From Candidatus Pacearchaeota archaeon (GTDB taxonomy: Archaea; Nanobdellota; Nanobdellia; Pacearchaeales; GW2011-AR1), in the NCBI GenBank assembly GCA_018304105.1, contig JAGVWX010000019.1:1411-65410 (forward strand): 64,000 nucleotides of DNA. The letters run 5' to 3'. Position numbers and translations under genes: made by a program. Below are positions 4,848 through 37,927 of the stretch, in pieces; within the stretch, counting starts at the first letter, position 1; each line of letters begins with the position of its first letter. Under the pieces are notes generated by a model. The model did not search any database. It saw only the letters and a list, made by a program, of their open reading frames with translations, and was not told where the DNA came from.

Positions 4848-6872
4848 ATGAAAAAGAGTGGTGCATATTTGCTTTTGGTTTTTTTAGTTGTCGCGGTTGT
4901 GGGAATTGTGGTTTATTCATTTATAGTTTTTAGACCTTCGGAAGAAGCAGGAGAAGAGATTATGCTCGCACCTTTGACAATTCATTTTCCGGCAAATTGT
5001 TCAGATTTTGAGATAAAGGCGGTTTGGGACAGCGTGTTTCTGGTTTCTTCAGATAATATTTACATAGCCACTAATAACACTGGAACTGGTGCCTGTACTG
5101 CATTTTATGCATATAAAAGTTTGAGTAGCAATGCGACTTACGTGATGGGGGGTTATGCAGTCCGCGATAACAGCGGAATAAACGGTCCATATGTGGAAAT
5201 CAATTCGTCTAATGTATTTTATTTTTATGGAAATTTAACTTTTGTTGATACGGAGTTCTTGAATTTTACTTCTGATTTAGTTGGAAATCCATTTTATATT
5301 TTTGCTATCTTGGGTGTTGGCGCTTATTTTGATGCGGGGGCATATAACTGGACTCAGGTTCCAATTGAACCATATGAGAAATTTAAATCACAGTTTAATT
5401 ATATGAATGATTCGGCTTTTGTTTGGTCGTCGCCATTGTTTACGATAGATGAATCGACTTCAATGAGCTCTTCGGGAATTACTGGAACTAACAAAACTCT
5501 TCAAGTTAATTCTACTGTTTCCGCTTTAGTTCATGGTTACAATCAAACTATGGCTTATATCGGATCAACTACTCGTGCAATTCAGTGTTCTCCGAATTGG
5601 ACATGCACAGACTGGGGTGCTTGCAATGGAACTGTTCAAAACAGAACATGCACGGACCAAAGAAACTGCGGTATCGCATATGGCAGACCGTCGCTAACTC
5701 AAAGTTGTAGTTTAGCATGCATGCCGAACTGGACTGCAGTTAACGCGACTACTATATGCAATTCAAATGAAACTTTTGTTATATGGTATAATGACACGAA
5801 AAGGTGCGCGAATATGACGAGGCCGGCAAACACAACAGGATATTGCGATTATGGAAATAACGGTTTGATAGGAAAGCTCAGCGATATAGCGCATGATAAT
5901 CTGGATGTTGACGCCTTGAAGATTAATAACAGCGCAGTTAACTATTCAAAAAATTATACGGGCGATAAATATGTAGAATTGATTGAGGATGTTGATGATG
6001 TTGATATTGTAAGGGTGCGATTTAGATATGACTTTGACGATGGGCCTTTGAATTTGAAGACTGTCAGGATTGAAAAGCAAGACGATGAATCTGAATTTGG
6101 CTATCTTATTGTTGACGGGCTTGATGTCACCAATAAAGATTTTAGAGTTGATAAAATTTATGACTCTGGTGCTGTGTGCGTTAAGGATTACGCAATAACC
6201 AATATTAATGAGATAGATGACGAATGCGAAGGAAATGACGAATATATTATAGTTTGTCCCGGGAAAAGCGGAGAATTTAATTGCAGTGACGGGGGAAGCG
6301 GAACTTATCTCGTCAGAGGATTGGATAATTCAGGGGTTAGAGAGCTAGCAGATACGGTTTCGACTACTACGACAACCACTACAACTGCCTCGCAAGGGAG
6401 CCCGGCTTGCCAAGTAGATTGGGATTGCGGGCTTTGGGGCGATTGCGTTGGAGGAGTGCAAAAAAGACTTTGCACAGACCTAAGCACTTGTCCTGGCACG
6501 AACAAGAGCTACAACCAAACTCAAGCGTGCACTGAAGGCTGCACTCCAAGTTGGAAATGTGGAAATTGGACGTCTAAAGATTGCGGACCGGGAGAGGAGC
6601 AGAACCAGGAATGCACGGATTTGAACGGATGCGAAGCAGATCAAACAAGGACAAGAGACTGTCCTGAGGATGGAGGCGGAGGAATTGACTGGATGCTTAT
6701 CGGAATTGTAATTGCTGCCGCAGTTATTGTATTGGCTGCGATTATATTGATAATTGTTGTGAAAAAAAGGAGAAATGCCAGAGTATCTGAAGAAAATTCT
6801 ATAGTGCTGCAAAAGCCACTCGCGGGAAATTTTAATCCAACGCATTACGGTGGGCAGGGTTTTGGAAGATGA
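4848..6872 (+). CDS. large Cys-rich surface protein with TSP1-like W-x-C-x-x-W-x-x-C modules and a C-terminal TM anchor
   Basis: 674 aa with an N-terminal TM/signal and many N-x-S/T sequons. Four modules such as CSPNWTCTDWGACNGTVQNRTCTDQRNC and CQVDWDCGLWGDCVGGVQKRLCTDLSTC. Poly-Thr tract. C-terminal helix followed by KKRRN. Confidence 0.7.
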   Translation: MKKSGAYLLLVFLVVAVVGIVVYSFIVFRPSEEAGEEIMLAPLTIHFPANCSDFEIKAVWDSVFLVSSDNIYIATNNTGTGACTAFYAYKSLSSNATYVMGGYAVRDNSGINGPYVEINSSNVFYFYGNLTFVDTEFLNFTSDLVGNPFYIFAILGVGAYFDAGAYNWTQVPIEPYEKFKSQFNYMNDSAFVWSSPLFTIDESTSMSSSGITGTNKTLQVNSTVSALVHGYNQTMAYIGSTTRAIQCSPNWTCTDWGACNGTVQNRTCTDQRNCGIAYGRPSLTQSCSLACMPNWTAVNATTICNSNETFVIWYNDTKRCANMTRPANTTGYCDYGNNGLIGKLSDIAHDNLDVDALKINNSAVNYSKNYTGDKYVELIEDVDDVDIVRVRFRYDFDDGPLNLKTVRIEKQDDESEFGYLIVDGLDVTNKDFRVDKIYDSGAVCVKDYAITNINEIDDECEGNDEYIIVCPGKSGEFNCSDGGSGTYLVRGLDNSGVRELADTVSTTTTTTTTASQGSPACQVDWDCGLWGDCVGGVQKRLCTDLSTCPGTNKSYNQTQACTEGCTPSWKCGNWTSKDCGPGEEQNQECTDLNGCEADQTRTRDCPEDGGGGIDWMLIGIVIAAAVIVLAAIILIIVVKKRRNARVSEENSIVLQKPLAGNFNPTHYGGQGFGR

Positions 6873-20902: not shown

Positions 20903-22192
20903 ATGAAATATTCCAAAACATACTCTGGACTTATTGCATTTAGCTTAATTGCAATTTTAGTTCTTGCAGGGCCGGCTGACGCGTTTGTGAGCTCTTTGGA
21001 AGTTGATGATTCGGTTGTTGAGCAAGGAGAGAAAGTCGTGTTCACAGCGAGCGTTGAACTTTCCAAGGGAGAGTTTGAAGGAATAAACGATTTAATCATT
21101 GATGTTAATGGTCCGGAGAATTTGACTTGCGAGTTTTCGGTTGACGGCGAGGTAAAGTCCGGATGTGAAGGCATGAAGATAGAAAGAATATCTGCTCCTG
21201 ATTTTGGATACGGTTATGGTTACGGATACGGCTATGGGTATGGATATGGTTACGGATACGGCGAAGTTAAAGGAAAGCTAGTTTATAAGATTACGCTGGA
21301 TACAGACGGTCTTGACGTGGGAAATTATTCGACTTCCTTAACGGTAAAGTATGGTTTGAGCGAGCAAAAAGTTGAAGGAGAGAGTTTTGAGATAGTCCAG
21401 AAGCACGAGGGGAAAGTAACTATTTGTCATGTTCCTCCTGGAAATCCTGAAAATGCGCACACGATAAAAGTTGGCGCTTCGGCCGTTCCTGCTCATTTGA
21501 TGCACGGAGATCATGTTGGGGAGTGCGCAGAAAATAATGATGACAATAATGAAAGCGAAAAGGAAAATGGGCGCGGTGGTTCGCACGGGGGTGGTTCTGA
21601 ATCTGGAAGTTCTGACGAAGAAGACGATGAAGAAGGAAATATTTACGAAAACTTGACTTATGAAAATGAAACTAATGGGCATGGAAATGGGACTTGGGAA
21701 AATGAAACTCATGAAGATGATGACGGGAAAAATGAGACTAGCCAACATGGAAATGAAGCAATGAAGAATGAAACTCATGAAGACGAACACGACGATGGGA
21801 ATGTAAAAAACGAGACAAGGAAAAACGAAACTGAACAAAATAGAAACGATGACCATGAAGATTCAACAGTAGAAGATTCTCAAGACGATGAGCATGAGGA
21901 TAACGGAAACACAAACGGCAAGGAAGATGAAGTTCAGGAAGAGCAAGGCAATGGAGATAGCAAAGATGGGAACAATAGCCAAGATGAGGAAAGCGACGAT
22001 GACGAAAATGATAGCCAAGATAAGGGGAATAACGGAAACGGAAGTAATGATAACGGAAACAGCAGAAATGTAAAGGTTGAGAAGAGCAATAATGGAAATG
22101 GAAATGATGGTGGGGAAACGGGAAATGGAAATTCAGGAAACTCAAACGGGAATAATGGAAATTCTGGCGGAAAAGGAAAGAAAGAGAAGTAG
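20903..22192 (+). CDS. secreted GY-loop surface protein, paralog 5 of 5, with CHVPPGNP...HGD...GEC motif and long acidic N/D/E/G tail
   Basis: Signal VLAGPADA. FGYGYGYGYGYGYGYGYG loop. GKLVYKITLD...GNYST. VTICHVPPGNPENAHTIKVGASAVPAHLMHGDHVGEC. About 230-aa low-complexity tail. Confidence 0.8.
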   Translation: MKYSKTYSGLIAFSLIAILVLAGPADAFVSSLEVDDSVVEQGEKVVFTASVELSKGEFEGINDLIIDVNGPENLTCEFSVDGEVKSGCEGMKIERISAPDFGYGYGYGYGYGYGYGYGYGEVKGKLVYKITLDTDGLDVGNYSTSLTVKYGLSEQKVEGESFEIVQKHEGKVTICHVPPGNPENAHTIKVGASAVPAHLMHGDHVGECAENNDDNNESEKENGRGGSHGGGSESGSSDEEDDEEGNIYENLTYENETNGHGNGTWENETHEDDDGKNETSQHGNEAMKNETHEDEHDDGNVKNETRKNETEQNRNDDHEDSTVEDSQDDEHEDNGNTNGKEDEVQEEQGNGDSKDGNNSQDEESDDDENDSQDKGNNGNGSNDNGNSRNVKVEKSNNGNGNDGGETGNGNSGNSNGNNGNSGGKGKKEK

Positions 22193-22246: not shown

Positions 22247-22483
22247 ATGAAATCTTTTACGGCGATTATAAGAAAAGGAGAAAAGCAGTTTGTTGCTTTG
22301 TGCCCAGAAGTTGATGTTGTCAGCCAGGGATACACTATAGAGGAGGCAGTTGAAAACCTTAAGGAAGCTGTCGGGCTTTATTTGGAAGAAATGGGCGAAC
22401 CTGAACAATATGGCTCTCAAGATACTTTTGTAGTCAAATTTGAGGTGAAACCATTTGGCAAAGTTACCGAGGCTATCGGGTAA
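22247..22483 (+). CDS. hicB: HicB-like antitoxin (UPF0150 fold)
   Basis: 78 aa. FTAIIRKGEKQFVALCPEVDVVSQGYTIEEAVENLKEAVGLYLEE is the typical HicB N-terminal domain pattern. Confidence 0.75.
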   Translation: MKSFTAIIRKGEKQFVALCPEVDVVSQGYTIEEAVENLKEAVGLYLEEMGEPEQYGSQDTFVVKFEVKPFGKVTEAIG

Positions 22484-22682
22484 AGAAGTTATAAAAGCTT
22501 TGAAGAAAGCGGGATTTATTGAAGTGCGACAGCGAGGAAGTCATGTTATCATGATAAAACAAACAGCCAATGAAAAGATTCCCCTTGTTGTGCCGATGCA
22601 CAGAGAAATTGATACTGGGATGTTGTTGGAAATAATTAGACAATCAAAGATGAATCGTGATGAGTTCCTTGGTCTTCTTTAG
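22455..22682 (+). CDS. hicA: HicA-like toxin
   Basis: 75 aa from a TTG start. LSGKEVIKALKKAGFIEVRQRGSHVIM matches the HicA (YcfA) pattern. Overlaps hicB by 29 nt. Confidence 0.75.
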   Translation: MAKLPRLSGKEVIKALKKAGFIEVRQRGSHVIMIKQTANEKIPLVVPMHREIDTGMLLEIIRQSKMNRDEFLGLL

Positions 22683-22782
22683 TTAATTTGTTCTAATTCT
22701 AGTTAACTCCTGATTGGTTCTTGTGTAACTCTAAAATGGTAAAAAGCACAAGGTTTAAAAGGATTTAATAAGTTTGAGAAAT

Positions 22783-24009
22783 ATGATAGACGTAATGCAG
22801 AGTAGTGGTAAAAGGTTAAAGGTTATTGTCATGAGTCCGGCGTATAATGAAGCGGAGAACATAGCCAAGGTGATTAAAGGAGTGCCGAGAGAGATTCGTG
22901 GAGTTGGGGAAGTTAAGGTAATGGTGATTGACGACCATTCGAGCGATGGCACTGCTATGGTGGCAAAGAACGCAGGGGCAGATTATGTTTTCAGGCAGAA
23001 GCAGCGTTCAGGACTCGGAGCGACTTTTAAGAAAGGAATCGATATTGCTTTACGACTCGGAGCTGATATAATTGTGAATATTGATGGAGACGGACAGTTC
23101 AATTCGAAAGATATTCCGAAGCTTATTGCGCCGATTCTGGAAAATGAAGCTGATATGGTGACCTGCTCGAGATTCTTGCAGCCGGAAATGACTAAGAACA
23201 TGCCTTGGAGCAAGAGATGGGGGAATAAAAGATTTTCAAATTTAATAAGCAGAATAACTGGAGAGAAATTTTCTGATACGCAGTGCGGGTTTAGAGCTTA
23301 TTCGAGAGAGGCGGCTTTGAGGCTGAACCTGAAGGGGAAGTTCACTTACACGCAGGAAGTTTTCATAGATTTAGTTGAGAAAGGAATGAGAATAAAGGAA
23401 GTGCCGTGCGAGGTTCAGTATTTTGAAAACAGAAAGTCGGTAATTTCGAGCAAAAGTTTTACGGGACTTGTGAAAGGATATGGATTCAAGAGTTTGGGAA
23501 TAATCGCGAAGACGACAAGAGATACGCAGCCATTGACTTTCTTTGGGATGCCTGCATTGATGGTTTTTATTTTGGGATTTATTGGAGGAGCGTACTCTTT
23601 TGTTTATTGGCTTATTTACAGCGCGACGACGCCGATTAGAACTTTGTTTAACGTTTCTGTTTTTTTTATGATATTTGGAGTTGCGCTTGGGATTTTAGCG
23701 ATGGTTGCAGACATGCTGAAGACGATAAAAGGAACGCAGGATGAGCTTTTGTACAGGTTGAAGAGGAATGAAGTTGACCAGAGCCATGCGATGAAGACGC
23801 TGAACGGGCATGTTGAGAAAGTCAATGGAACGATGAAGAAGATTAATGGACATGTGAAAGAGATGAAGATGAACGGAAATGGAAGCGGACACGCGGACAA
23901 GAATGATAAAGAGAATGAAGTTGAGATGTTTGCGGAAGGAAAAGATGAAAAGAGTGTTGGATATTATGCGGGATTGAATGCCCATAAAAGACGAATGAAA
24001 GAGCGATGA
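22783..24009 (+). CDS. GT2 family glycosyltransferase (dolichyl-phosphate hexose synthase-like) with C-terminal TM and coiled tail
   Basis: VIVMSPAYNEAENI, VIDDHSSDGT and NIDGDGQF (DxD) motifs, two TM helices, charged tail. The ATG at 22783 is preferred over the listed TTG at 22774 because the TATA aggtttaaaagg lies ~22 nt upstream. Confidence 0.8.
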   Translation: MIDVMQSSGKRLKVIVMSPAYNEAENIAKVIKGVPREIRGVGEVKVMVIDDHSSDGTAMVAKNAGADYVFRQKQRSGLGATFKKGIDIALRLGADIIVNIDGDGQFNSKDIPKLIAPILENEADMVTCSRFLQPEMTKNMPWSKRWGNKRFSNLISRITGEKFSDTQCGFRAYSREAALRLNLKGKFTYTQEVFIDLVEKGMRIKEVPCEVQYFENRKSVISSKSFTGLVKGYGFKSLGIIAKTTRDTQPLTFFGMPALMVFILGFIGGAYSFVYWLIYSATTPIRTLFNVSVFFMIFGVALGILAMVADMLKTIKGTQDELLYRLKRNEVDQSHAMKTLNGHVEKVNGTMKKINGHVKEMKMNGNGSGHADKNDKENEVEMFAEGKDEKSVGYYAGLNAHKRRMKER

Positions 24010-24284: not shown

Positions 24285-24530
24285 TTAATCAGAGAAATCA
24301 ATCTCGCTAGGCAGTTTTTTATCTAACTTTTGCAACAGTCTTTTGAGAAGATAAACTCTTTTTCCAAAAGCAAATATTCCGACGCTCTTTACTTCGCTCG
24401 TGTTTTCATCCTTTCTAATGAAAACGCCTTCTTCCGGTTCTTCAGTAAAGCAGGGCGTCGGCTCTCCGAAAAATACCTCTAAAAAATCTGCTTCCTTGTC
24501 GTAATGGATTTCATATATTGTATCTGTCAT
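24285..24530 (-). CDS. DUF2283-like small protein (putative antitoxin)
   Basis: 81 aa. IHYDKEADFLEVFFGE...GVFIRKDENTSEVKSVGI matches the Y-D-x-x-x-D pattern I associate with DUF2283. Confidence 0.65.
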   Translation of the reverse strand: MTDTIYEIHYDKEADFLEVFFGEPTPCFTEEPEEGVFIRKDENTSEVKSVGIFAFGKRVYLLKRLLQKLDKKLPSEIDFSD

Positions 24531-24826
24531 TTTATTTTATCCTCGTAATATGCTGTTACGATGTACCCTTCGCCGTTTAAATATTTAACTAAGACGAGGA
24601 GATATTTGTAAGGCGATGGCCTATGTTTGAAATACTTATAGTAAAAACCGGCTTTCTCATCTAGTTTAGGAAAAGTAATTTTATCGGGCTCTTTTATGGT
24701 CTCTTCTAGTTCTTCTGCGTTTTCAACTTCCGGATGTTTTTTTCTTATATGAGTCCACCTTTCCTGAGAAAGATGAATTCGCTTGCCGGATTTGTCAGTT
24801 ACTTCAAATACGTAACTCATTGTCAA
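24527..24826 (-). CDS. putative toxin partner of DUF2283 (RelE/barnase-like, family uncertain)
   Basis: 99 aa. Overlaps the downstream DUF2283-like gene by 4 nt. The HLSQERWTHIRKKHPEV motif is typical of small nuclease-toxin families. Confidence 0.45.
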   Translation of the reverse strand: MTMSYVFEVTDKSGKRIHLSQERWTHIRKKHPEVENAEELEETIKEPDKITFPKLDEKAGFYYKYFKHRPSPYKYLLVLVKYLNGEGYIVTAYYEDKIK

Positions 24827-24878
24827 GAGATTAAACGTTTGTTAATAAAAGTTAGCTTATGCTTTGCATGTTTTGTCA

Positions 24879-24954
24879 TAACTCAAGAGTTACATAAATC
24901 GTAAGGGTTTTAATGGCTGAGAAGTAAGGATTTTTATGTTAGGAAGCAGTGAAA
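24879..24954 (+). promoter_or_regulatory. duplicated promoter/leader module P1 (copy 1)
   Basis: taactcaagagttacataaatcgtaagggttttaatggctgagaagtaaggatttttatgttaggaagcagtgaaa is nearly identical to 26259-26334. Contains the TATA-like gggttttaatgg and a short uORF starting MLGSSE. Confidence 0.55.
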
Positions 24955-24991
24955 TTGGGATGCTTTGCGTGATTTGCATAGGAGACGAAAG

Positions 24992-25459
24992 ATGAAAGAA
25001 TTTGATTATTATATTTTTATAGACTATTCGGAGAATTTTCTAGGATACTTAATTTTGGATGGCGAAGAGATAAAGACAATTTTGCCGAAGATATCAAAAT
25101 TTGCCCATTATAAAAAACTCAGGCACAAGTCTTTGTATATTCATTCGATTAAAAAAGTCGTCGACAAAATGGAGTTAATAAAATACTTTGTTAAGTTCAA
25201 GATAAAAACGTTAAGGGATACTCCTGAGATTTATGCGGATTTGGTTGAGTTTATCAGGAAGAATGATAATTGCATTATTTTTATTTCAGTAGATGATAGG
25301 CAGTTCTCTAATTTTGAAAGACTGGTTAGAAATATAGACGGGAAAAATAATAAGATTGTGAAAGAGAGCCAATTGAAAAAGGGCTCTGCAGAGCATAGAC
25401 TGAGTTTAGTTTTAGACACGTTATTAAATATGGAGAGATTAAAAAATGAAAGCAAGTAA
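24992..25459 (+). CDS. uncharacterised ~155-aa protein, family X (copy A)
   Basis: MKEFDYYIFIDYSENFLGY...NCIIFISVDD... is about half identical to 28769..29227. The ATG at 24992 is preferred over the listed TTG at 24965. No family recognised. Confidence 0.7.
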   Translation: MKEFDYYIFIDYSENFLGYLILDGEEIKTILPKISKFAHYKKLRHKSLYIHSIKKVVDKMELIKYFVKFKIKTLRDTPEIYADLVEFIRKNDNCIIFISVDDRQFSNFERLVRNIDGKNNKIVKESQLKKGSAEHRLSLVLDTLLNMERLKNESK

Positions 25460-25571
25460 CTTAGAAATTAAGCATAGGGTAAGGAGGTCCGTCAATCCTA
25501 CTAACCGCATCATCGCATTAAGCGAGCACGGGATTCGTCAGGTCCTGTTCCCCTATGATTTGTCTAGTGAC

Positions 25572-25653
25572 TTGAATTATATAAACTTTGCGGATAACGC
25601 TGAATTGGAGGAATTGATATGAGTAAGAGAAAGCTGGTTGTGTTTGCTTCGAC
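25572..25653 (+). repeat. copy of the GT4 promoter plus first 35 nt of the GT4 gene
   Basis: ttgaattatataaa...gaattgatATGagtaagagaaagctggttgtgtttgcttcgac matches 29335-29417 with few mismatches, then diverges into a stop. Confidence 0.85.
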
Positions 25654-25707
25654 CATTTGAAAACCGCTAAAAATATAAACCACTAGCGACTTTAATCTTA
25701 AAAGAGA

Positions 25708-25923
25708 ATGGGAAAAATAGTTCCGAGAACTGCGAAGGACGTGGTAAAAATTCTTGAAAGATTCGGTTTTAAGTTTGTGAGCAGGGGCAGGCATGACAAA
25801 TATAGGAATGAAGAAAGGGGGATTAGTGTTCCTGTGCCCGTGAGCCACGGAGTTATTTCAAGAGGAGTAATTCAATCATTAATTAGACAAACGGGAATAG
25901 CAAGAGAAGAGTTTGAAGTTTAA
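25708..25923 (+). CDS. hicA: HicA-like toxin
   Basis: 71 aa. AKDVVKILERFGFKFVSRGRHDKY resembles the HicA pattern with GSH replaced by GRH. TATA aaaatataaac lies ~25 nt upstream. Confidence 0.65.
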   Translation: MGKIVPRTAKDVVKILERFGFKFVSRGRHDKYRNEERGISVPVPVSHGVISRGVIQSLIRQTGIAREEFEV

Positions 25924-26183
25924 ACGAAGACTCTTGTCAGCATGGGAGCAATTTCAGAAGATTCTTGTTCTATCATAAACGTTCTTTTTTCTTTGGAATC
26001 TTCAAGGACAATTTCTGCGGCGTCTTTGATATTTTCGATAGCTTCTTCTAATGTAAGACCTTGTGAGGCGACGTCCAGTTGAACTCCCTGCGCAACGAAG
26101 AACTCTTTGCCGTTAATCTTCTCTTTGGTTATAACTACGTCCAAGATAGATTCCTTTCTTTTAGCTTTAGATGTTTCTTCCAT
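25920..26183 (-). CDS. hicB: HicB-like antitoxin, convergent with hicA
   Basis: 87 aa. FFVAQGVQLDVASQGLTLEEAIENIKDAAEIVLE. The C-terminus APMLTRVFV parallels NPMISRIFL of 38994..39251. Shares a TTAA stop-stop overlap with 25708..25923. Confidence 0.7.
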   Translation of the reverse strand: MEETSKAKRKESILDVVITKEKINGKEFFVAQGVQLDVASQGLTLEEAIENIKDAAEIVLEDSKEKRTFMIEQESSEIAPMLTRVFV

Positions 26184-26258
26184 TTAGCACCTGTTTTAAT
26201 TATCTCCTGCAACTTTAAATATCTTCTGTTCGGTGGGGGCTGTTATAGAATTTTGTTC

Positions 26259-26334
26259 TAACTTAAGAGTTACAGAAATCGCAAGGTTTTTAATGGCTGG
26301 AAAGTAAGGATTTTTATGTTTGGAAGCAGTGAAA
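26259..26334 (+). promoter_or_regulatory. duplicated promoter/leader module P1 (copy 2)
   Basis: Near-identical to 24879-24954. Here the MFGSSE leader continues in frame into ORF 26316..26879. Confidence 0.55.
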
Positions 26335-26879
26335 AAGCAGATAGTAAAATGAAAAAAAACCATTTTGGCGGGAGAACGATGCACATTGATGTCAGCCGAA
26401 GGTTTTATCAGGAAGGGGACAGCGGAATCGCGTTTAAAATAATTCCTTCTCAGAAACATAAAGGCATGGTTTTGTCGAATAAACTAAAGAAAGAGTTAAT
26501 AAGAGATTTTGAGCTGGATAAAAATTATGCCCAGCTTCATGCAGTCTGCATTTATTATCTCATTCGCGACGAACTTGACTCTTTTGATAATCTCGTTATC
26601 TGCAATGACGAATCTTATTTTGATGTTAAGAGGTATTTAGATATTCTATTTTTAGATAATGAAAAATATCTTTCCAAGTTTATCACATCGTTAAGCAAAT
26701 TAAGAGAGATTACAGGAGACGCGAAAATCCGCTCTTATGCCGACGGCATCGCAAATGTTTACAGAAGGAAGGCGTTGAAGCCAATCAGAAGACGACAGAA
26801 AGGCGTTTTGCTGGATATAGTTCAAATAAACTACAAAATGATTAAAGAAAAATTGGAGGTAACTAAAAAAATTAAGTAA
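26316..26879 (+). CDS. hypothetical protein, possible distant member of family X
   Basis: 187-aa ORF; the start may instead be the internal ATG at 26379 (MHIDVSRRF). HIDVS...GIAFKI and LVICNDESYFDVKRYL loosely parallel IFIDYS...GYLIL and IIFISVDDRQFSNFERL of family X. Confidence 0.5.
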   Translation: MFGSSEKADSKMKKNHFGGRTMHIDVSRRFYQEGDSGIAFKIIPSQKHKGMVLSNKLKKELIRDFELDKNYAQLHAVCIYYLIRDELDSFDNLVICNDESYFDVKRYLDILFLDNEKYLSKFITSLSKLREITGDAKIRSYADGIANVYRRKALKPIRRRQKGVLLDIVQINYKMIKEKLEVTKKIK

Positions 26880-27108
26880 ATGGTATGAATTTTCCCAACC
26901 AATTACACGCATACGCGCTGGATACATCACATACGTGGTGCTTTTACGGGGTTCATTCCACTTACAAGTTATATAGAACATGGAGTTATATAAAACTTTT
27001 GGTTTAGAAAGTATGGAAAAAATTAAGTTAACAGAACCCGATGGTACTGAAACGCGCATCTCAAGGTGCACTGACCAGCAGGCTTTACCTGTTAGTAACT
27101 TCAGGCTT

Positions 27109-27159
27109 TTGGATATTATAAACCTTTCGGGCAACACTGAGTTGGGAGAACTAAGAATG
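27109..27159 (+). repeat. third copy of the GT4 promoter module
   Basis: ttggatattataaacctttcgggcaacactgagttgggagaactaagaATG aligns with 29335-29385 (ttgaattatataaatctttcgggcaacgccgaattggggaaataagatATG). Sequence after the ATG is unrelated. Confidence 0.7.
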
Positions 27160-27264
27160 GAAGGAAATGCTGATTGCGAGAGACGGAGGACAACAGATGA
27201 AGATGAAGAGGGAAAGTTTAAATATCCCAAAGAGGGGATAATATTATCTCATATTTGTAGGAAC

Positions 27265-27873
27265 ATGGAATCAAAAAATCAAAAAGAAATATTGAACTTG
27301 TTCAGGAAGAATGTTTTTCTAAAAGCAAGCATACGGGAACTCTCTAAGAGGCTGAATAAAAAGTCGTATCAGAGGGTTTATGACGCTGTGAAAGAGCTGG
27401 AGAGAAGAAGAATCTTAGAATTGGAAAGGGTCGGAAAAAGTGACATTGTTTCTTTGGAGTTGAATCATCAGTCAGTTTTGCATTTATCTTATCTGGATGA
27501 AATAGAAAGCATGGGGAAAATTCCGAGTTATGAAAAACTTGCTGGCTTGAAAGAAATTTCCAATTATCTTCTTATTGTAACTGGAAGCTATGCTAAAGGA
27601 AACTTTACAAAGAAATCAGATTTGGATTTGGTAATTGTCATTCCAGATAATCAAAAAGCGATTGATGTCCAGAGGAGAGTTGAAAATTTGACTCTCGCAT
27701 TTTATCCGAAAGTCCATCTTTATGTTTTTAATAATAAGGATTTTCTTGAAATGCTTCTTGATAAGAAAGAGAATTATGGGAAGGAAATTTACAGGAACCA
27801 CTTGATTCTTAGAAATGCCCATACATATTATGAAATTCTGAGGGAGGCGCGAGAACGTGGATTCAAAGGCTAA
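27265..27873 (+). CDS. wHTH-fused minimal nucleotidyltransferase (MNT-like)
   Basis: IVTGSYAKGNFTKKSDLDLVIVIP matches the Pol-beta superfamily motif GSxxxGxxxxxSDxDL. The N-terminal RELSKRLNKKSYQRVYDAVKELERRRILE looks like a wHTH. The internal ATG at 27265 is preferred because the listed N-terminal 95 codons run over a duplicated promoter module. Confidence 0.7.
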   Translation: MESKNQKEILNLFRKNVFLKASIRELSKRLNKKSYQRVYDAVKELERRRILELERVGKSDIVSLELNHQSVLHLSYLDEIESMGKIPSYEKLAGLKEISNYLLIVTGSYAKGNFTKKSDLDLVIVIPDNQKAIDVQRRVENLTLAFYPKVHLYVFNNKDFLEMLLDKKENYGKEIYRNHLILRNAHTYYEILREARERGFKG

Positions 27874-28002
27874 GTGGAAAGAAGCTTTGGCGAATGGCAA
27901 AATTTATAAACAGAACGCTCTTGGAAGATTTAGAATGTTCCCCAGTGATCCTATGGGGTCGCTGGATGATTTTATCTTTAATCTTGCTGGAGGTGTCTGC
28001 TA

Positions 28003-28680
28003 ATGGAAGATACATTAGTTTTTGTTGATGAGGGTTTCTTAGATAAATTGACTAAGTTTTTTGGCGAGGGTATTAGACTAAAGTTTGACAAACTCGGCTT
28101 TGCAAGAAGAATCGCCAAGAAGCAGAATTTGTTTTGCAAGCACTTATTTTATTATACCTGCCCGCCGTTTCAGTCAACAAGCCCAACAGATGAAGAAATA
28201 AAGAGAAGAAGAGGATATGATAAATTTGTTTCTTCTATAAAAAAGAACAAAGAAGTTACGGTAAGAGAGGGAAGATTGCAAAAAATAATCAATGAAGCCG
28301 GAGAAATTGAGTTTAAACAAAAAGGGGTTGATACACTACTAACTATTGACTTAGGCCATACAAGAGAGGATTATCCCAGCATTAAGAGAGTAATTTTGGT
28401 CTCTTCTGATACGGACTTTTGCCCGATTATCCAAGACATAAAAAAAAGGGCAGGAATAGAAGTAATCTTGTATAGCTATTTTGATAGAACAAGAAAATCA
28501 AAGTTTTCTCTATCCAACGAATTGCTAAAGTGCTGTTTTAAGTATGTTAAGCTAACGAAAGAAGATTTTACATCCTGCCCGATAAGCAATAAAGACGATG
28601 AAGGAAAGAGAAAGAGCGAGAGCAACGAAAGAGGCAAGGAAAAAGACAATGAAGAGAGGGGTGAGGGAGATGGAGAATGA
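28003..28680 (+). CDS. NYN (LabA-like) domain protein with acidic/basic C-terminal tail
   Basis: LVFVDEGFL...QKGVDTLLTIDL...VILVSSDTDFCPIIQDIKKRAGIEVILYSY reproduces the NYN/LabA acidic residue pattern. Confidence 0.7.
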   Translation: MEDTLVFVDEGFLDKLTKFFGEGIRLKFDKLGFARRIAKKQNLFCKHLFYYTCPPFQSTSPTDEEIKRRRGYDKFVSSIKKNKEVTVREGRLQKIINEAGEIEFKQKGVDTLLTIDLGHTREDYPSIKRVILVSSDTDFCPIIQDIKKRAGIEVILYSYFDRTRKSKFSLSNELLKCCFKYVKLTKEDFTSCPISNKDDEGKRKSESNERGKEKDNEERGEGDGE

Positions 28681-28697
28681 GCGCGGCATTGATGAGT

Positions 28698-28749
28698 ATG
28701 AGTAAGAGAAAGCTGCTTGTGTTTGCTTCGACGTTTCCGAGATGGAAGA
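28698..28749 (+). repeat. copy of the first 52 nt of the GT4 gene
   Basis: atgagtaagagaaagctgcttgtgtttgcttcgacgtttccgagatggaaga is identical to 29383-29434. It then diverges and is fused to the start region of family X copy B. Confidence 0.85.
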
Positions 28750-28768
28750 CGATGAAGGAGATGGGACG

Positions 28769-29227
28769 ATGAAAGACTTTGATTATTATATTTTTATTGA
28801 TTATTCTGAAAATTTAATTGGTTATGCAATAATTGAAGATGAAAAATTGAAAGAGCTTCTTCCTAACCTAACCAGGTTTAAACATTATCGCTCTTCTGGC
28901 GATAGGATGTCTTACCTTCGGCATATTAAAAAGACAATTGAACGCGACGATATAAAATCTTTTTTTCTTAAATTAAAAATAAAAGAAATGCGCAAGAATA
29001 TGGAAATTCATCTTGATGTCCTTGAATTTCTGAAAACGCATGAGAATTGCATTATTTTTATTTCGGTTGATAACAGCCAGTATTCTGCTTTTAGAAAAAT
29101 GGTAAATATTGTTGACGGAAAAGACATAATGATAAAACAAGAAAGCGAATTAAAAGAAGGAACACCAGAATATCAGGTAAGTCTTGTATTGGATAATTTG
29201 CTAAACATAGAGAGGTTAAGAAAATGA
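28769..29227 (+). CDS. uncharacterised ~152-aa protein, family X (copy B)
   Basis: MKDFDYYIFIDYSENLIGY...NCIIFISVDN... is a paralog of 24992..25459. The internal ATG is preferred by alignment with copy A. Confidence 0.7.
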   Translation: MKDFDYYIFIDYSENLIGYAIIEDEKLKELLPNLTRFKHYRSSGDRMSYLRHIKKTIERDDIKSFFLKLKIKEMRKNMEIHLDVLEFLKTHENCIIFISVDNSQYSAFRKMVNIVDGKDIMIKQESELKEGTPEYQVSLVLDNLLNIERLRK

Positions 29228-29334
29228 TAAGTAACAAGTTAGCATACAGGGTAAGGGCGTCCGTCTATCCTACTCCCCATAACAAGATATGGCTTTCGTC
29301 AGGTCGCTTTCCCCTATACAGTTTATTGAGCTGT

Positions 29335-29382
29335 TTGAATTATATAAATCTTTCGGGCAACGCCGAATTGGGGAAATAAGAT
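29335..29382 (+). promoter_or_regulatory. promoter of the GT4 gene (master copy of the duplicated module)
   Basis: TATA-like ttgaattatataaa about 35 nt upstream of the ATG at 29383. Same module at 25572 and 27109. Confidence 0.55.
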
Positions 29383-30597
29383 ATGAGTAAGAGAAAGCTG
29401 CTTGTGTTTGCTTCGACGTTTCCGAGATGGAAGAAGGATACGATTCCGCCTTTTGTTTATGAGTTGAGCAAGAGACTTGTAAAGGGATTTGATGTTACTG
29501 TTTTAGCTCCGAGTTTTCCTGGAGCGAAGGAAGAGGAAGTCATGGACGGAATGAAAGTCAAGAGATTTCATTACGGGCTTGGAAGATATGAAACGCTGGC
29601 GAGCAACGAGGGAATTTTGCCCGCGCTGAAGAAGAGCAAGTGGAATTATTTTAAGATTCCTTTCTTTTTGCTTGGGGAGTTTTTTGCGTTGAGGAAAGAG
29701 ATTAAGGAAAATAGGCCCGATATGATTCATGCGCATTGGATTATCCCTCAGGGTTTTGTTGCGGCGATTTGCAAGAAGTTTTATGGGACGAGGTTTGTGG
29801 TTACGACGCATGGCGGAGATATTTTTGGCTTGAGAGGATTTGTCTCTAGGATGAGCAAGAGATTCACATTGAGAAATGCGGACAAGATAACGGTTGTAAG
29901 CAATGCGATAAAGAAAGAGATTTTGACTACGCTGAATCCGAAGCTGAAAATAGATGTGGTTTCTATGGGAGTTGACAGCAAGAAGTTCAATCCGAGGCAG
30001 AGAGACGACTCCATAAAGAAGAAGTACAAGATTGGCGAGGAGTTTTTGCTTTTTGTCGGGAGACTTGCGGAGAAGAAAGGAGTTAAGTATTTGCTTGAGG
30101 CGATGCCGGATGTTTTGAAGAAATTTCCGAAAGCAAAACTTTTAATTGTGGGCAGTGGTCCTTTGGAGAAAGAGCTAAAGGAGATTCACAAGAATTTGAA
30201 ACTTAAAGACAGCGTGGTTTTTACAGGCGCGATAGCAAATGCAGAACTTCCGAAGTATTATGCAACAGCAGATATTTTTGTTGGGCCTTCAATTGAAGCG
30301 AGAGGAGGGGATAAGGAAGGGTTAGGCCTGACTTTCGTTGAAGCTGGAATGTCTGGAGCATTAGTTATTGCAACCGATTTGGAAGCTATAGCAGATGCTA
30401 TTCAAGATGGCAAGACTGGGTTTATTGTTAAGCAGAAAAATTCTAAAGAGATTGCCAAGAAGATTATTTCTTTATTGGGTTCTAAAGACAAGATGGGCAA
30501 AATGCAGAAAACAGCGAGGGCAGAGTTGGTAAAGAAGTTTGACTGGGATGTTGTGAGCAAGAGATACGATGAAATTCTTGGAGGGGTGGGGAGATGA
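29383..30597 (+). CDS. GT4 family glycosyltransferase
   Basis: 404 aa. GT-B pattern with GGD, GRLAEKKG and the EGLGLTFVEAGMSGALVIATD (E-x7-E region). Confidence 0.85.
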   Translation: MSKRKLLVFASTFPRWKKDTIPPFVYELSKRLVKGFDVTVLAPSFPGAKEEEVMDGMKVKRFHYGLGRYETLASNEGILPALKKSKWNYFKIPFFLLGEFFALRKEIKENRPDMIHAHWIIPQGFVAAICKKFYGTRFVVTTHGGDIFGLRGFVSRMSKRFTLRNADKITVVSNAIKKEILTTLNPKLKIDVVSMGVDSKKFNPRQRDDSIKKKYKIGEEFLLFVGRLAEKKGVKYLLEAMPDVLKKFPKAKLLIVGSGPLEKELKEIHKNLKLKDSVVFTGAIANAELPKYYATADIFVGPSIEARGGDKEGLGLTFVEAGMSGALVIATDLEAIADAIQDGKTGFIVKQKNSKEIAKKIISLLGSKDKMGKMQKTARAELVKKFDWDVVSKRYDEILGGVGR

Positions 30598-33129: not shown

Positions 33130-33827
33130 ACAATAAAATTACTACGGCAATCGACGGAAGACTAAAGAAATCAATCGTCTTATTGGGAGATTTGACTGGC
33201 AAGAAAATATTAGACGTTGGGTGTAAGGCAGCGTGGCTGGAAAACTATCTCAACGACCACAAGACAAAACTTAAGGAAATGCATTCGTTTGACGTAGAGA
33301 ATTATGATTTTCCTAAACTTGGAAAGAAGTTTCATTTTGCTATTGATTCAGTATTGGATATGAAGAGATATTTCGGAAAAGATTTTGATGTGGCTACATT
33401 CTTTGAAGTGATAGAACATATACCGAAGAATACAGAGTTACAAGCTTTGACGAACATAAGGAAAACTTTGAAGGTTGGTGGGAAGCTTTATTTGTCGACT
33501 CCAAACAAAAGTCTTTTTTCAAATGCTCTTGATCCAGCTTGGTGGCTTATAGGCCATAGACATTACTCCGAGAAAGAACTGAGGAAGATGTTGGAAAAAG
33601 TTGGTTTTAAGATAGTTAAGTCAGAAGTCCGAGGAGGATTTACGGAGTTGATCGCTATGGACACTTACTATTTATTCAAGAATGTGTTTAGAACGAAAAG
33701 GTTTGGTTCTAACTTGTTTAAGGATAAAAGAAATAGTGATTATTTAGATAAGAACAAGAAAGGATTTGCTACTCTGTTTATCGTTGCAGAAAAGACTAAG
33801 GAAAAGAAAAATAAAACTCTCCCCTAA
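33126..33827 (+). CDS. class I SAM-dependent methyltransferase
   Basis: ILDVGCKAAW (motif I-like), FDVATFFEVIEHIP, GGKLYLSTPN. The last four codons and the stop are contributed by repeat element R1. Confidence 0.65.
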   Translation: MNNKITTAIDGRLKKSIVLLGDLTGKKILDVGCKAAWLENYLNDHKTKLKEMHSFDVENYDFPKLGKKFHFAIDSVLDMKRYFGKDFDVATFFEVIEHIPKNTELQALTNIRKTLKVGGKLYLSTPNKSLFSNALDPAWWLIGHRHYSEKELRKMLEKVGFKIVKSEVRGGFTELIAMDTYYLFKNVFRTKRFGSNLFKDKRNSDYLDKNKKGFATLFIVAEKTKEKKNKTLP

Positions 33828-33910
33828 ACCCTTAATCTCAACAGCAGTTCTCATCTCAAATGGGACGGACGCCAATTTAGTTCTGGTTAGCTCTGGTTAG
33901 TTCTGCTGGC
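33814..33910. repeat. cassette-boundary element, copy R1
   Basis: aaactctcccctaaacccttaatctcaacagcagttctcatctcaaatgggacggacgccaatttagttctggttagctctggttagttctgctggc. Near-identical copies at 36018, 36889 and 37692. Confidence 0.9.
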
Positions 33911-34060
33911 TGTGTTGTGATTTGCTTGGTTCTGCTTGGTTCTGCTTGGTTCTGCTTGGTTCTGCTTGTCTTGCTAATTGCCTTACTTGCTTTGTCGTGA
34001 TTTGCTGACGATGTGAACGACATGTGAATGACTTGTGAGTGAGGAGAAGAACGAAGTGAA
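33881..34060. repeat. phased 10/11-bp degenerate tandem array upstream of a promoter
   Basis: ttctggttag ctctggttag ttctgctggc ... tttgcttggt (tctgcttggt x3) tctgcttgtc ... then gatgtgaacga catgtgaatga cttgtgagtga ... agtgaacga. The top strand is almost free of A over 33881-33970. Confidence 0.85.
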
Positions 34061-36017: not shown

Positions 36018-36116
36018 AAACTCTCCCCTAAACCCTTAATCTCAACAGCAGTTCTCATCTCAAATGGGACGGACGCCAATTTAGTTCTGGTTAGCTCTGG
36101 TTAGTTCTGCTGGCTG
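36018..36116. repeat. cassette-boundary element, copy R2
   Basis: Near-identical to 33814-33910. Confidence 0.9.
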
Positions 36117-36167
36117 CGTTTGGCTTGTGAACGAAACAATTAAAAGCATTTGAAAGCAAACTATTGT

Positions 36168-36813: not shown

Positions 36814-36888
36814 GCCGATTATCTGTTGAAATTCTTTGGCAGTTTTCTCTTGAGTTTATTCTTCTTTGAGGTCTCGGAACAGAAAATG

Positions 36889-37079
36889 AAACTCTCCCCT
36901 AAACCCTTAATCTCAACAGCAGTTCTCATCTCAAATGGGACGGACGCCAATTTAGCTCTGGTTAGTTTTGCTGGTCTTGCTCGCTTTGCTTGTTAATTGC
37001 CTTACTTGCTTTGTCGTGCTTGTTTTGCTGGCTGTGTTGTGATTTGCTGACGATGTGAGGGGTTTGTGAACGGCTATGG
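36889..37079. repeat. cassette-boundary element, copy R3, plus phased array
   Basis: Core near-identical to R1, followed by ctctggttagttttgctggtcttgctcgctttgcttg...gatttgctgacgatgtgaggggtttgtgaacgg. Confidence 0.9.
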
Positions 37080-37335: not shown

Positions 37336-37692
37336 ATGAAATTCCTTACTGATGAAAATGTGGCAGTTTCCGTCGTTGGATTCTTAAGGCAAGAAGGATT
37401 TGATGTGAAAGACGTAAAGGAAGAGTTGTTGCATGGCTCTCCAGATAGAGAAATTTTCGAGCTTGCAAAGAAAGAAAATAGAGTTGTTCTAACGCATGAC
37501 AAAGATTTCTTGGAGATTGTAAAGAATTACACTTCTGATTTTGAGGGGATTATTTTAATAAAGTGCAAAAAACAAAGTCCAGAAAACGTTATCGCAACTT
37601 TAAGCAAACTCATAGACTCTGAGGCAATTAAAAAAATTAAAAATAGTCTGTTTATTTTGAATGAAGAAGAATTAGTAATAATTAGAAAATGA
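37336..37692 (+). CDS. DUF5615-like (PIN-like/Mut7-C type) toxin candidate
   Basis: 118 aa from the ATG at 37336 (MKFLTDENV...LTHDKDF). Typical partner of DUF433. The listed upstream start overlaps the DUF433 gene and is rejected. Confidence 0.7.
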   Translation: MKFLTDENVAVSVVGFLRQEGFDVKDVKEELLHGSPDREIFELAKKENRVVLTHDKDFLEIVKNYTSDFEGIILIKCKKQSPENVIATLSKLIDSEAIKKIKNSLFILNEEELVIIRK

Positions 37693-37790
37693 AACTCTCC
37701 CCTAAACAAATCATCTCAACAGCAGTTCTTATCTCAAATGGGACGGACGCCAATTTAGTTCTGGTTAGTTCTGGTTAGTTCTGCTGGCTG
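37692..37790. repeat. cassette-boundary element, copy R4
   Basis: aaactctcccctaaacaaatcatctcaacagcagttcttatctcaaatgggacggacgccaatttagttctggttagttctggttagttctgctggctg. Begins at the stop codon of the preceding gene. Confidence 0.9.
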
Positions 37791-37927
37791 CGTTTGGATG
37801 GTACGTTTACAGACGCTGATTAACGCTTTGTTGAAAATCTGTCTTTTCTTGGCTGTTTGCTACTCACCAGCCACATTTAAAATCCTTGCCACCAAAATCT
37901 TTTAAACTTCAATAAACTGAACAAATT

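Follow-up and report, generated by a model that had tools for sequence, protein, structure and literature searches.

A probable cassette island at a glycosyltransferase gene boundary of a Pacearchaeota archaeon and its candidate protein–RNA modules

At surface-polysaccharide loci (O-antigen, capsule), conserved flanks anchor the exchange of variable glycosyltransferase clusters. Protein–RNA pairs are found among the toxin–antitoxin systems, where type I relies on a 3′-overlapping antisense RNA, as in txpA/RatA, and type III is represented by ToxIN. The DPANN archaea have tiny genomes, and the way in which these change is poorly understood. In the effector–immunity arrays of rearrangement hotspot (Rhs), contact-dependent inhibition (CDI) and type VI secretion system (T6SS) loci, modules are displaced sequentially, for which homology-facilitated illegitimate recombination has been proposed (Kirchberger et al. 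2017, PMC5361080). Some RuvC-fold proteins act together with kink-turn (K-turn) or structured RNAs, namely the IS110 recombinase with its bridge RNA and Nop5 with box C/D RNA (PMC11213020). The present analysis concerns 64,000 nucleotides (nt) of chromosomal DNA from a Pacearchaeota (DPANN) genome, hereafter the window. In it, the 5.4-kb interval between two glycosyltransferase genes, GT2 and GT4, contains repeated pieces of the GT4 5′ end, two copies (X-A and X-B) of a protein family here called X, and one member of a second family, Y, with a predicted structured RNA gene beside each of the three.

GT2 (22774–24009, plus strand; Pfam Glycos_transf_2) forms the left boundary of the interval, and GT4 (29383–30597, plus strand; 404 amino acids (aa); Pfam Glycos_transf_1 and Glyco_transf_4) the right. 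The interval is probably a cassette island at what was originally a tight operon boundary, its cassettes being PBECR/DUF2283, HicAB, a nucleotidyltransferase, a NYN-domain protein, X-A and X-B with their RNAs, and Y with RNA-Y. The best joint explanation is that the island grew by homology-anchored illegitimate recombination and that it carries protein–RNA modules; its probability is put at about 0.6, and in it we infer both the insertion mechanism and the function of the modules.

Copies of the GT4 5′ end and the GT2–GT4 junction in relatives

The initial annotation had described the first 35 and the first 52 nt of GT4 as duplicated upstream of the gene, and both duplicates were recovered. 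The longer is a 53-nt string, TATGAGTAAG...GATGGAAGA, which is present at 28697–28749 and at 29382–29434 with 53 of 53 positions identical and corresponds to GT4 nt −1 to 52. The former copy (plus strand) is the left arm of a perfect direct repeat around the X-B module, and the right arm is GT4's own first 52 nt. The first 35 nt of GT4 recur at 25619–25653 (plus strand) with one mismatch, interpreted as a recombination scar. The expectation for such copies, from dinucleotide-preserving shuffles, was 0.00 matches. The two junctions differ, as had been noted, one lying after GCTTCGAC (25653) and the other after GATGGAAGA (28749). In the alignment, a fourth and much weaker copy of the GT4 start, not significant alone, was seen at ~27157–27178, fused to the start of the nucleotidyltransferase gene.

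Two further repeated modules reported by the initial annotation also stood up. A 43-nt ‘GT4 promoter module’ is present at 25572–25614, 27109–27151 and 29335–29377, the latter two copies with 81% and 72% identity to the first. Its core was found three times in the window, plus one unrelated match with three mismatches at 5577–5596 on the minus strand, against 0.03 expected. The stretch between the X stop codon and this module is likewise similar between the two X copies (25476–25556 and 29248–29317). The second module, an 84-nt leader termed ld, was found at 24871–24954 and 26251–26334 (both plus strand; 89% identity; two matches against 0.01 expected). Leader copy 1 lies upstream of X-A and contains the palindrome TAACTCAAGAGTTA and the TATA-like sequence TTTTTATG; copy 2 lies upstream of ORF187, the family Y gene. 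Of the relatives' loci, here designated by L numbers, L032 also has the leader and L057 has three copies. Because two of the three L057 copies stand directly before GT4-type starts, ld is probably GT4's native upstream region.

The same gene order was found in 24 contigs from other samples that encode an identical GT4 protein, and the three examined had 0 mismatches to the window; the arrangement is therefore not an assembly artefact. The contigs derive from groundwater assemblies (ANAN16/Rifle-type and ERZ2725xxxx). Alternative arrangements, which the initial annotation had envisaged, were absent from these contigs, whose uniform order is uninformative on variation.

Relatives present the GT2–GT4 junction in several states. 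In L146 (GCA_030611805.1) and L147, the two genes are 4 nt apart, providing the empty site for which the initial annotation had suggested a comparison. L145 has two small genes between them, and L143 has HicA and PemK cassettes only, with the junction region present three times and neither X nor its RNA. X modules are found among other cassettes at the junction in L057, L032, L041, L005 and L007, the GT2 orthologues of which are 38–76% identical. Six GT4 5′ fragments were counted in L057 (UBA73), with end points from nt 54 to 168; those of the window end at nt ~22–24, 35 and 52. In L005/L024, a unit of ~125 nt with a GT4-like start (MN/K-I/V-LFITRS...) precedes each of nine cassette genes. The cassette of a small ORF (open reading frame) and a NYN gene is common to the window, L057 and L005, with orthologues 68–72% identical. 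The junction of NYN with the GT4 fragment is common to the window and L057, and the DNA after it differs. The L057 GT4 gene is conserved in its first ~170 nt only, the rest of the glycosyltransferase cluster having been replaced (27% identity).

The empty site, together with the differing cassettes beside copies of the GT4 5′ end or leader, supports the GT2–GT4 junction as an insertion hot spot with recombination scars. The proposal that the GT4 5′ end is a recurrent point of insertion or recombination is thus upheld by L146, by the variety of cassettes, by the scars in L057 and L143 and by the 53-bp repeat around X-B. The further suggestion that every event was the integration of an X-carrying element did not hold, as cassettes without X bear the same scars (L057, L143, L005/L024).

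According to the proposed mechanism, serial insertions at the junction would have built the island, each leaving a copy of the first 24–52 nt of GT4 or of the native leader ld. The conserved GT4 5′ end or leader would act as a homologous anchor through which host recombination engages incoming foreign or sister DNA, and the other end of that DNA would be joined illegitimately. With each event, older cassettes and a truncated anchor copy would be shifted leftwards, amounting to sequential displacement as in Rhs/T6SS arrays. The 5′ end and leader would be reused as anchor because they alone are conserved between two variable regions. Since a perfect 53-bp direct repeat brackets it, the X-B module is marked as the putative latest arrival.

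The 3306-bp contig L024 (PFCY01000022.1) consists only of repeats of a GT-like 5′ unit with a cassette, and includes two X–RNA modules as well as a NYN and a DUF3800-like gene. The contig has the same 72 bp at both ends, as would be seen with a small circle or with an assembly break inside a multi-copy repeat.

An integron-like platform could also be envisaged, from which cassettes leave as circles and integrate again by site-specific or single-crossover (Campbell) recombination, with the GT4 5′/leader repeat as attachment site. Arrays of the form (repeat–cassette)n beside a fixed gene in at least four genomes are in keeping with this, as are the common end point of most L005/L024 repeat units and the identical 72-bp ends of the 3.3-kb L024 contig, and a single crossover of a circle carrying a GT4 5′ piece would give exactly the direct duplication observed. 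However, no integrase, transposase or recombinase was identified in the Pfam annotation of the called genes from ~3.6 to 53 kb of the window, that is, within ~25 kb on either side of the island. The fragment end points differ (nt 24, 35 and 52 in the window; 54–168 in L057), as would not be expected of a single defined crossover site, and most cassettes are not followed by an attC-like element. The L024 ends are equally explained by an assembly break in a multi-copy repeat. This platform was considered quite unlikely, and homology-anchored displacement was retained.

Families X and Y and their RNA genes

X-A (24992–25459, plus strand) has 155 aa and X-B (28769–29227, plus strand) 152 aa, and 518 homologues were found for the latter. 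The two were confirmed to be about half identical (48% over 151 aa, E = 6e-55). The closest relative of X-A is the L057 orthologue (71%) and those of X-B are copies in L005 and L007 (75–78%). Upstream of X-B, the displaced GT4 5′ fragment has become a mini-ORF, MSAALMSMSKRKLLVFASTFPRWKTMKEMGR (28677–28771), the stop codon of which overlaps the X-B start codon (ATGA); consequently, translation of X-B may be coupled to initiation in the former GT4 start region.

These identities bear on another explanation of the repeats, in which a unit of X, RNA and GT4 fragment was duplicated locally in tandem and then diverged, with later insertion of cargo and no foreign input. The order X–RNA–promoter–GT4 fragment does occur twice in the window, and X paralogues are clustered in L007, L008 and L024. 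Against this, the X-A and X-B proteins share only 48% identity, compared to 97–100% for the DNA of the GT4 fragments beside them, and the two X copies have different closest relatives. Tandem duplication is therefore very improbable as the origin of the two copies, which are better accounted for by separate anchored insertions.

The AlphaFold2 model of X, built with 25 sequences, had a predicted local distance difference test (pLDDT) score of 86 and an RNase H-like topology. The best Foldseek match was to archaeal RNase HII (E = 3e-5; template modelling (TM) score 0.47–0.50; 9–13% identity), followed by weaker matches to RuvX, poxvirus resolvase, retroviral integrase and the RuvC-like domain of IS621 (TM ~0.37). 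Based on the model, X has a predicted RNase H-like fold and is assigned to the RNase H superfamily. No family match was obtained in Pfam, NCBIfam, PADLOC or PHROG. Identification of X as an RNase HII was rejected, the match being at the level of fold only, with none in Pfam or NCBIfam and nothing below E = 0.36 in a PDB-sequence profile search. A viral origin was also rejected, X being absent from IMG/VR and without PHROG matches. An exhaustive HMMER profile search of 1.84 billion representatives returned 101 X proteins, mostly fragments, and no fusions.

The sequence following X was analysed across 79 genome loci (817 kb) encoding X relatives, which, except for a few contigs assigned to other taxa, belong to bins of Pacearchaeota, Woesearchaeota or Nanoarchaeota. 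A nucleotide profile (nhmmer) of this stretch matched directly after X in nearly all 79 loci, and the alignment revealed a long hairpin with compensatory changes and a TATA box at a fixed distance. A covariance model, R1, gave 82 matches in the 79 loci, only three of which were not immediately 3′ of X. In the window it found exactly two copies, at 25464–25561 (92 bits, E = 3e-26) and 29236–29322 (86.5 bits, E = 2e-24), with the next best match at 16 bits; these correspond to X-RNA copy A (25474–25556, minus strand) and copy B (29246–29317, minus strand). When a fixed structure of 18 pairs was imposed, 90% of cells were paired compared to 33–45% when the partners were slid by 1–3 columns. Compensatory changes were present in 16 of the 18 pairs, values that none of 500 shuffles reached, and the structure predicted by RNAalifold itself agreed with the covariation.

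The strand was assigned from three features. Read in the minus orientation, the helices contain 83 G-U pairs compared to 14 A-C mismatches. In 66 of 77 loci, the first helix has a TATA octamer 19–22 nt upstream of it, itself preceded by an A-rich stretch resembling a transcription factor B recognition element (BRE), and in 57 of 79 a T-run (at least four T) comes after the last helix. The counts of wobble pairs, the TATA spacing and the position of the T-run thus point to a minus-strand transcript convergent with X, and disfavour an RNA on the plus strand. A small protein encoded after X was rejected as well: the window copies keep their nucleotides and shift frame, and the core lengths differ by non-multiples of three. 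An open frame was present in 73 of the 79 sequences, which is uninformative at such a length.

The repeated module upstream of GT4 takes on a different meaning in this setting. With its TATA 19–22 nt from the minus-strand 5′ end of the structure, its BRE-like stretch and the T-run beyond, it is placed and oriented to drive the minus-strand RNA, and is, by these sequence features, the predicted BRE/TATA promoter of a strongly promoted RNA gene of 85–95 nt. For RNA-A, the TATA (TTTATATA on the minus strand) and BRE-like A-rich stretch are at 25578–25595 (minus strand, module copy 1), and for RNA-B the TATA and BRE-like stretch are at 29341–29357 (minus strand, module copy 3). The initial annotation had taken these copies for a duplicated GT4 promoter facing the cargo genes; this reading was not supported, in view of the orientation of the TATA and of the presence of the module beside X where the downstream gene is unrelated to GT4.

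Twelve residues never vary among the 79 X-RNA sequences, C21, G23, A24, G26, A27 and A28 on the 5′ side and A78, U80, A81, G87, A88 and G90 on the 3′ side, and U22, C25, G79, G82, G83, U85 and C89 vary in <10%. In the columns of alignment A3, the pair C21–G90 is invariant, and 76 of 79 sequences retain C25–G82. Conservation extends to two unpaired segments, of 8 and 15 nt, whose core residues are invariant or nearly so. The invariant positions fit a K-turn, with tandem sheared G-A pairs, and a loop-E (sarcin–ricin-type) AGUA/GAA motif on which it directly stacks, an assignment made from the sequence pattern only. By definition, a K-turn has such pairs beside a 3-nt bulge, between a canonical and a non-canonical stem, and the bulge here would be 4 nt. 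In Rfam 15, no match overlapped either X-RNA copy at the gathering threshold or at E ≤ 10. The search for a box C/D layout found CUGA on the 5′ side and UGACG on the 3′ side within one long hairpin, with no single-stranded guide stretches and no Rfam match at E ≤ 10.

The same conserved segments bear on whether the element after X is instead a single-stranded DNA site for recombination or replication, comparable to attC or the ends of IS200/IS605, and not an RNA gene. All that covariation establishes is the folding of one strand, DNA hairpins tolerate G-T wobble pairs, and the element is found at cassette boundaries. Nevertheless, a TATA is present at a fixed 19–22 nt on one side, with a BRE-like stretch beyond it, and a T-run on the other, the conserved unpaired segments of 8 and 15 nt match RNA tertiary motifs (tandem G-A, AGUA/GAA) that are atypical of DNA sites, and a similar layout of promoter and terminator is found at RNA-Y. 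A DNA site is hardly credible on this evidence, and the element is treated below as an RNA gene.

Two X-RNA subtypes, with helix P1 AUAGGGG or AUAGAUG, go with different X clades. X-type RNA genes without an adjacent X, or with two subtypes in tandem, were seen at L014:7457-7676, L007:6569-6664, L078:2281-2376 and L103:1189-1285.

Family Y (ORF187; 26349–26879, plus strand; 176 aa) was found in 53 homologous clusters and 56 metagenome loci. Its AlphaFold2 model (pLDDT 93.8) has the order strand-strand-strand-helix-strand-helix-strand-helix, which is RNase H-like, and Foldseek gave weak matches to integrase, RNase HI and EndoV. Y is hence a second small protein of predicted RNase H-like topology; profile–profile comparison revealed no relationship between X and Y. 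RNA-Y (26876–26965, minus strand) is convergent with Y and overlaps its stop codon, with BRE/TATA at ~26986–27002 (TATA ~26986–26995). Over the Y loci (L080–L140), 53 RNA-Y matches lie directly 3′ of Y. Compensatory changes were found in 13 of its 21 pairs, and the single-sequence fold had z = −3.5. Helix P1 is GUAAGUGG/CCACUUAC, a T-run of its own is present, and the layout of promoter and terminator is that of X-RNA. No Rfam match was obtained for RNA-Y. On these sequence features, Y with RNA-Y is a putative module parallel to X with its RNA, using a different RNA.

After RNA-Y, the window has a hairpin of X-RNA-like shape (~27015–27090), a T-run and promoter-module copy 2 (27109–27151), together spanning 27015–27151 on the minus strand. 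The hairpin was recognized by folding; nhmmer matched the promoter part only, and R1 found no intact X-type RNA at this promoter copy. X-type RNAs or whole X modules stand beside Y modules in several other contigs, a pattern that the hairpin matches, and L103 has a good X-type RNA in the same position after RNA-Y. The element is probably a decayed or divergent X-type RNA gene without X. A search of full-text literature found no description of these RNAs or proteins.

Behaviour of the modules and their surroundings

The X module is found in very different contexts: the 56 downstream genes fall into 48 families and the 68 upstream genes into 63. Genomes have one to three X copies, often clustered. 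X and X-RNA co-diverge (Mantel r = 0.38, 0 of 999 permutations). Locus-specific direct repeats flank 12 of 67 X modules (18%) compared to 4 of 220 control genes (2%; Fisher p = 9e-6), and duplicate either the 5′ end or the upstream region of the gene that follows. They are 22–325 bp long and 84–100% identical, and lie at a variable distance from the module. Nothing consistent was seen at these repeats in the way of conserved element termini, a terminal motif or junction microhomology. At L033:314-2477, an X–RNA module and a gene of ~900 bp are enclosed by a perfect 325-bp direct repeat, which is the 5′ portion of a small zinc-ribbon-like gene; this is the longest duplication seen and apparently the youngest.

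The excess of flanking repeats over controls would also be produced if X and its RNA were an autonomous transposable element, in which X, as a RuvC/RNase H-like protein, catalyses insertion, perhaps assisted by the RNA, and long target duplications result. The repeats are often tight to the module (0–50 nt before the ATG and 22–70 nt beyond the TATA), the gene contexts are almost all different, copies number one to three per genome, and the fold is related to those of RuvC, integrase and the IS110 RuvC domain. On the other hand, the duplications vary in length from 22 to 325 bp, and the module has no fixed ends and no terminal repeats. Similar duplications flank cassettes without X (L143, the non-X cassettes of L057, and L005/L024). 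X has only 152 aa and no extra domain, and it is absent from IMG/VR. The RNA loops are invariant though the targets differ, so the RNA cannot specify targets, and X is found at the same locus across a clade with 38–76% GT2 identity. A transposable element is accordingly judged unlikely, and recombination anchored in host-gene 5′ ends remains the preferred explanation of the duplications.

As for function, X would bind its RNA through the K-turn/loop-E core, the pair being a self-contained module that would move horizontally. The convergent genes with touching 3′ ends, the invariant RNA core of a protein-binding type, the co-divergence, the multi-copy and patchy distribution and the toxin–antitoxin neighbours all suggest a selfish or defence-type unit. 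Most plausibly, the pair is an addiction or defence-type nuclease that the RNA restrains or enables. More tentatively, X with X-RNA and Y with RNA-Y could form a new class of compact protein–RNA modules specific to Pacearchaeota and Woesearchaeota, each with a minimal RNase H-fold nuclease restrained by, or dependent on, a convergent K-turn/loop-E RNA. If so, they could constitute a kind of RNA-antitoxin system, for addiction or defence, as yet undescribed in archaea, the RNA might mimic the natural structured-RNA substrate of the nuclease, and the modules would spread as cassettes into host-gene 5′ regions.

Several points weigh against the joint explanation. The divergence of the GT4 fragments has no simple left-to-right age order, the 35-nt copy being 97% identical and the 27157 copy barely recognizable, so the explanation has to call on gene conversion or on DNA imported from other strains. 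The usual outcome of homology-anchored illegitimate recombination is loss of recipient DNA and not its duplication, and the duplication step is unexplained in detail. No structural variants within the population were found among the contigs with identical GT4, which are all one clone. For the RNA, strand and expression are deduced from promoter/terminator geometry and the asymmetry of wobble pairs, and the same TATA could also fire towards GT4 in a dual role. The single-sequence folding energies of X-RNA are unremarkable (z = −0.25 to −1.8); because z-scores are unimpressive except for RNA-Y, the evidence for X-RNA is covariation and not thermodynamic stability. The toxin–antitoxin or defence reading of X, Y and their RNAs is drawn entirely from neighbourhood and behaviour.

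The other island cassettes comprise genes of conflict-associated types. HicA (25708–25923, plus strand) matched Pfam HicA_toxin with E = 8e-13, and the HicB-like gene (25920–26183, minus strand) had a weak HicB_lk match. The winged-helix and nucleotidyltransferase gene (27157–27873, plus strand) is MNT-like, with Pfam NTP_transf_2 at E = 1e-9 and a weak NCBIfam MntA-like match. The NYN-domain protein (28003–28680, plus strand) matched Pfam NYN with E = 3e-7, and the small ORF of the same cassette is at 27857–28003 (plus strand). A toxin–antitoxin-like pair of a PBECR2-type nuclease and DUF2283 lies at 24285–24826 (minus strand).

The DNA around the island carries HisRS, tRNA-His, ScpA and numerous toxin–antitoxin genes, and a protein identical to X-B is present on contigs of up to 188 kb. 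A second HicB/HicA pair is located beside the island at 22247–22682, and HisRS is flanked by PemK and ParE genes (~13.3–15.4 kb of the window). The region 20903–22192 encodes a predicted surface protein that contains a (GY)9 run and has a long N/D/E/G-rich tail, and homologues of this gene adjoin the GT2 side of the island in L057, L032, L007 and L005. On the other side, a repeat of ~100 nt, AAACTCTCCCCTAAACCC...GGGACGGACGCCAATTTAGTTCTGGTTAG..., has four copies (33814–33916, 36018–36120, 36876–36965 and 37688–37797) with ~93–99% identity by blastn. These sit between toxin–antitoxin-like genes (DUF5678/Asp-protease, DUF433/PIN) and may be a further leader, RNA or miniature element.

Comparison with described systems

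The series from empty site through few cassettes to long arrays indicates that conflict-type genes can accumulate at one operon boundary without a dedicated recombinase, and the pattern at the GT4 5′ end mirrors the displacement arrays of bacterial Rhs/T6SS loci. As in those arrays, a conserved stretch of one gene provides the homology anchor, and an older module is displaced by the incoming one and kept with a truncated copy of the anchor gene (35, 52 and ~22 nt in the window; six copies in L057 and three in L143). Content differs among close relatives, an array-free state exists (L146), no dedicated recombinase is present and the modules are small conflict-type genes. In the Rhs/T6SS case, however, orphan 3′ ends and immunity genes are left downstream of a polymorphic toxin gene, whereas here GT4 5′ fragments are left upstream. 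The anchor also differs, being the first gene of a glycosylation operon, as do the DPANN host and the presence of an RNA gene in several modules. The process may thus be the same as in Rhs/T6SS displacement, but the type of locus is not.

Integron arrays resemble the island in that cassettes accumulate mostly in one orientation at a fixed point by a resident gene, with a repeated element between them. Unlike in integrons, no IntI-type integrase gene was found (Pfam annotation, ~3.6–53 kb), and the separators are 5′ fragments of a host gene, or leaders, with variable end points, rather than attC. The only structured element follows X or Y and has its own TATA and T-run, which distinguishes it from attC. 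With surface-polysaccharide loci there is a similarity in L057, where the GT4 5′ end (~170 nt) behaves as a conserved recombination boundary; the variable DNA here, however, is upstream of the cluster and consists of toxin–antitoxin-like and nuclease–RNA cassettes instead of sugar genes.

Of the recombination pattern and the protein–RNA modules, the modules are the more novel element. They comprise two structured RNA families without an Rfam match, each locked to a family of small proteins of predicted RNase H fold without a match in Pfam, NCBIfam, PADLOC or PHROG, and the X and Y modules combined extend to well over 100 genomes and metagenome contigs in public databases. A K-turn RNA paired with a minimal RuvC/RNase H-fold protein would, if true, bear on the origin of archaeal RNA-guided or RNA-dependent nucleases and ribonucleoproteins. 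The likeness to IS110 and Nop5 lies in the genetic link between a small protein of RuvC/RNase H fold and a structured RNA, with invariant X-RNA residues that would fit a K-turn. Unlike those proteins, X is without the coiled-coil and the C-terminal Tnp and Nop domains. IS110 recombinases combine a DEDD RuvC-like domain with Tnp in ~300–450 aa, whereas X has 152–155 aa and no Pfam match to IS110 domains. X-RNA further differs from bridge RNA and box C/D RNA in being on the opposite strand, with no variable guide loops and no C/D box order. Its unpaired segments are conserved across the 79 sequences while the flanking genes vary (48 and 63 families), unlike the loops of bridge RNA. In contrast to DDE/RNase H-fold insertion sequences, no inverted repeats bracket the module, and the flanking repeats are of 22–325 bp at variable distance.

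The RNA-antitoxin systems offer a further comparison. X is not a small membrane peptide like type I toxins, and compared to type III ToxIN it is not a ToxN-fold RNase; the RNA is single-copy, downstream and on the opposite strand rather than an upstream tandem repeat, and no PADLOC match was obtained. The short RNAs, strong covariation and partners of 150–180 aa make the modules directly testable. In common with RNA-antitoxin systems, they are two-gene protein–RNA units, convergent with touching 3′ ends, multi-copy and patchy in distribution, X modules stand among other toxin–antitoxin genes, and the protein and RNA co-diverge.

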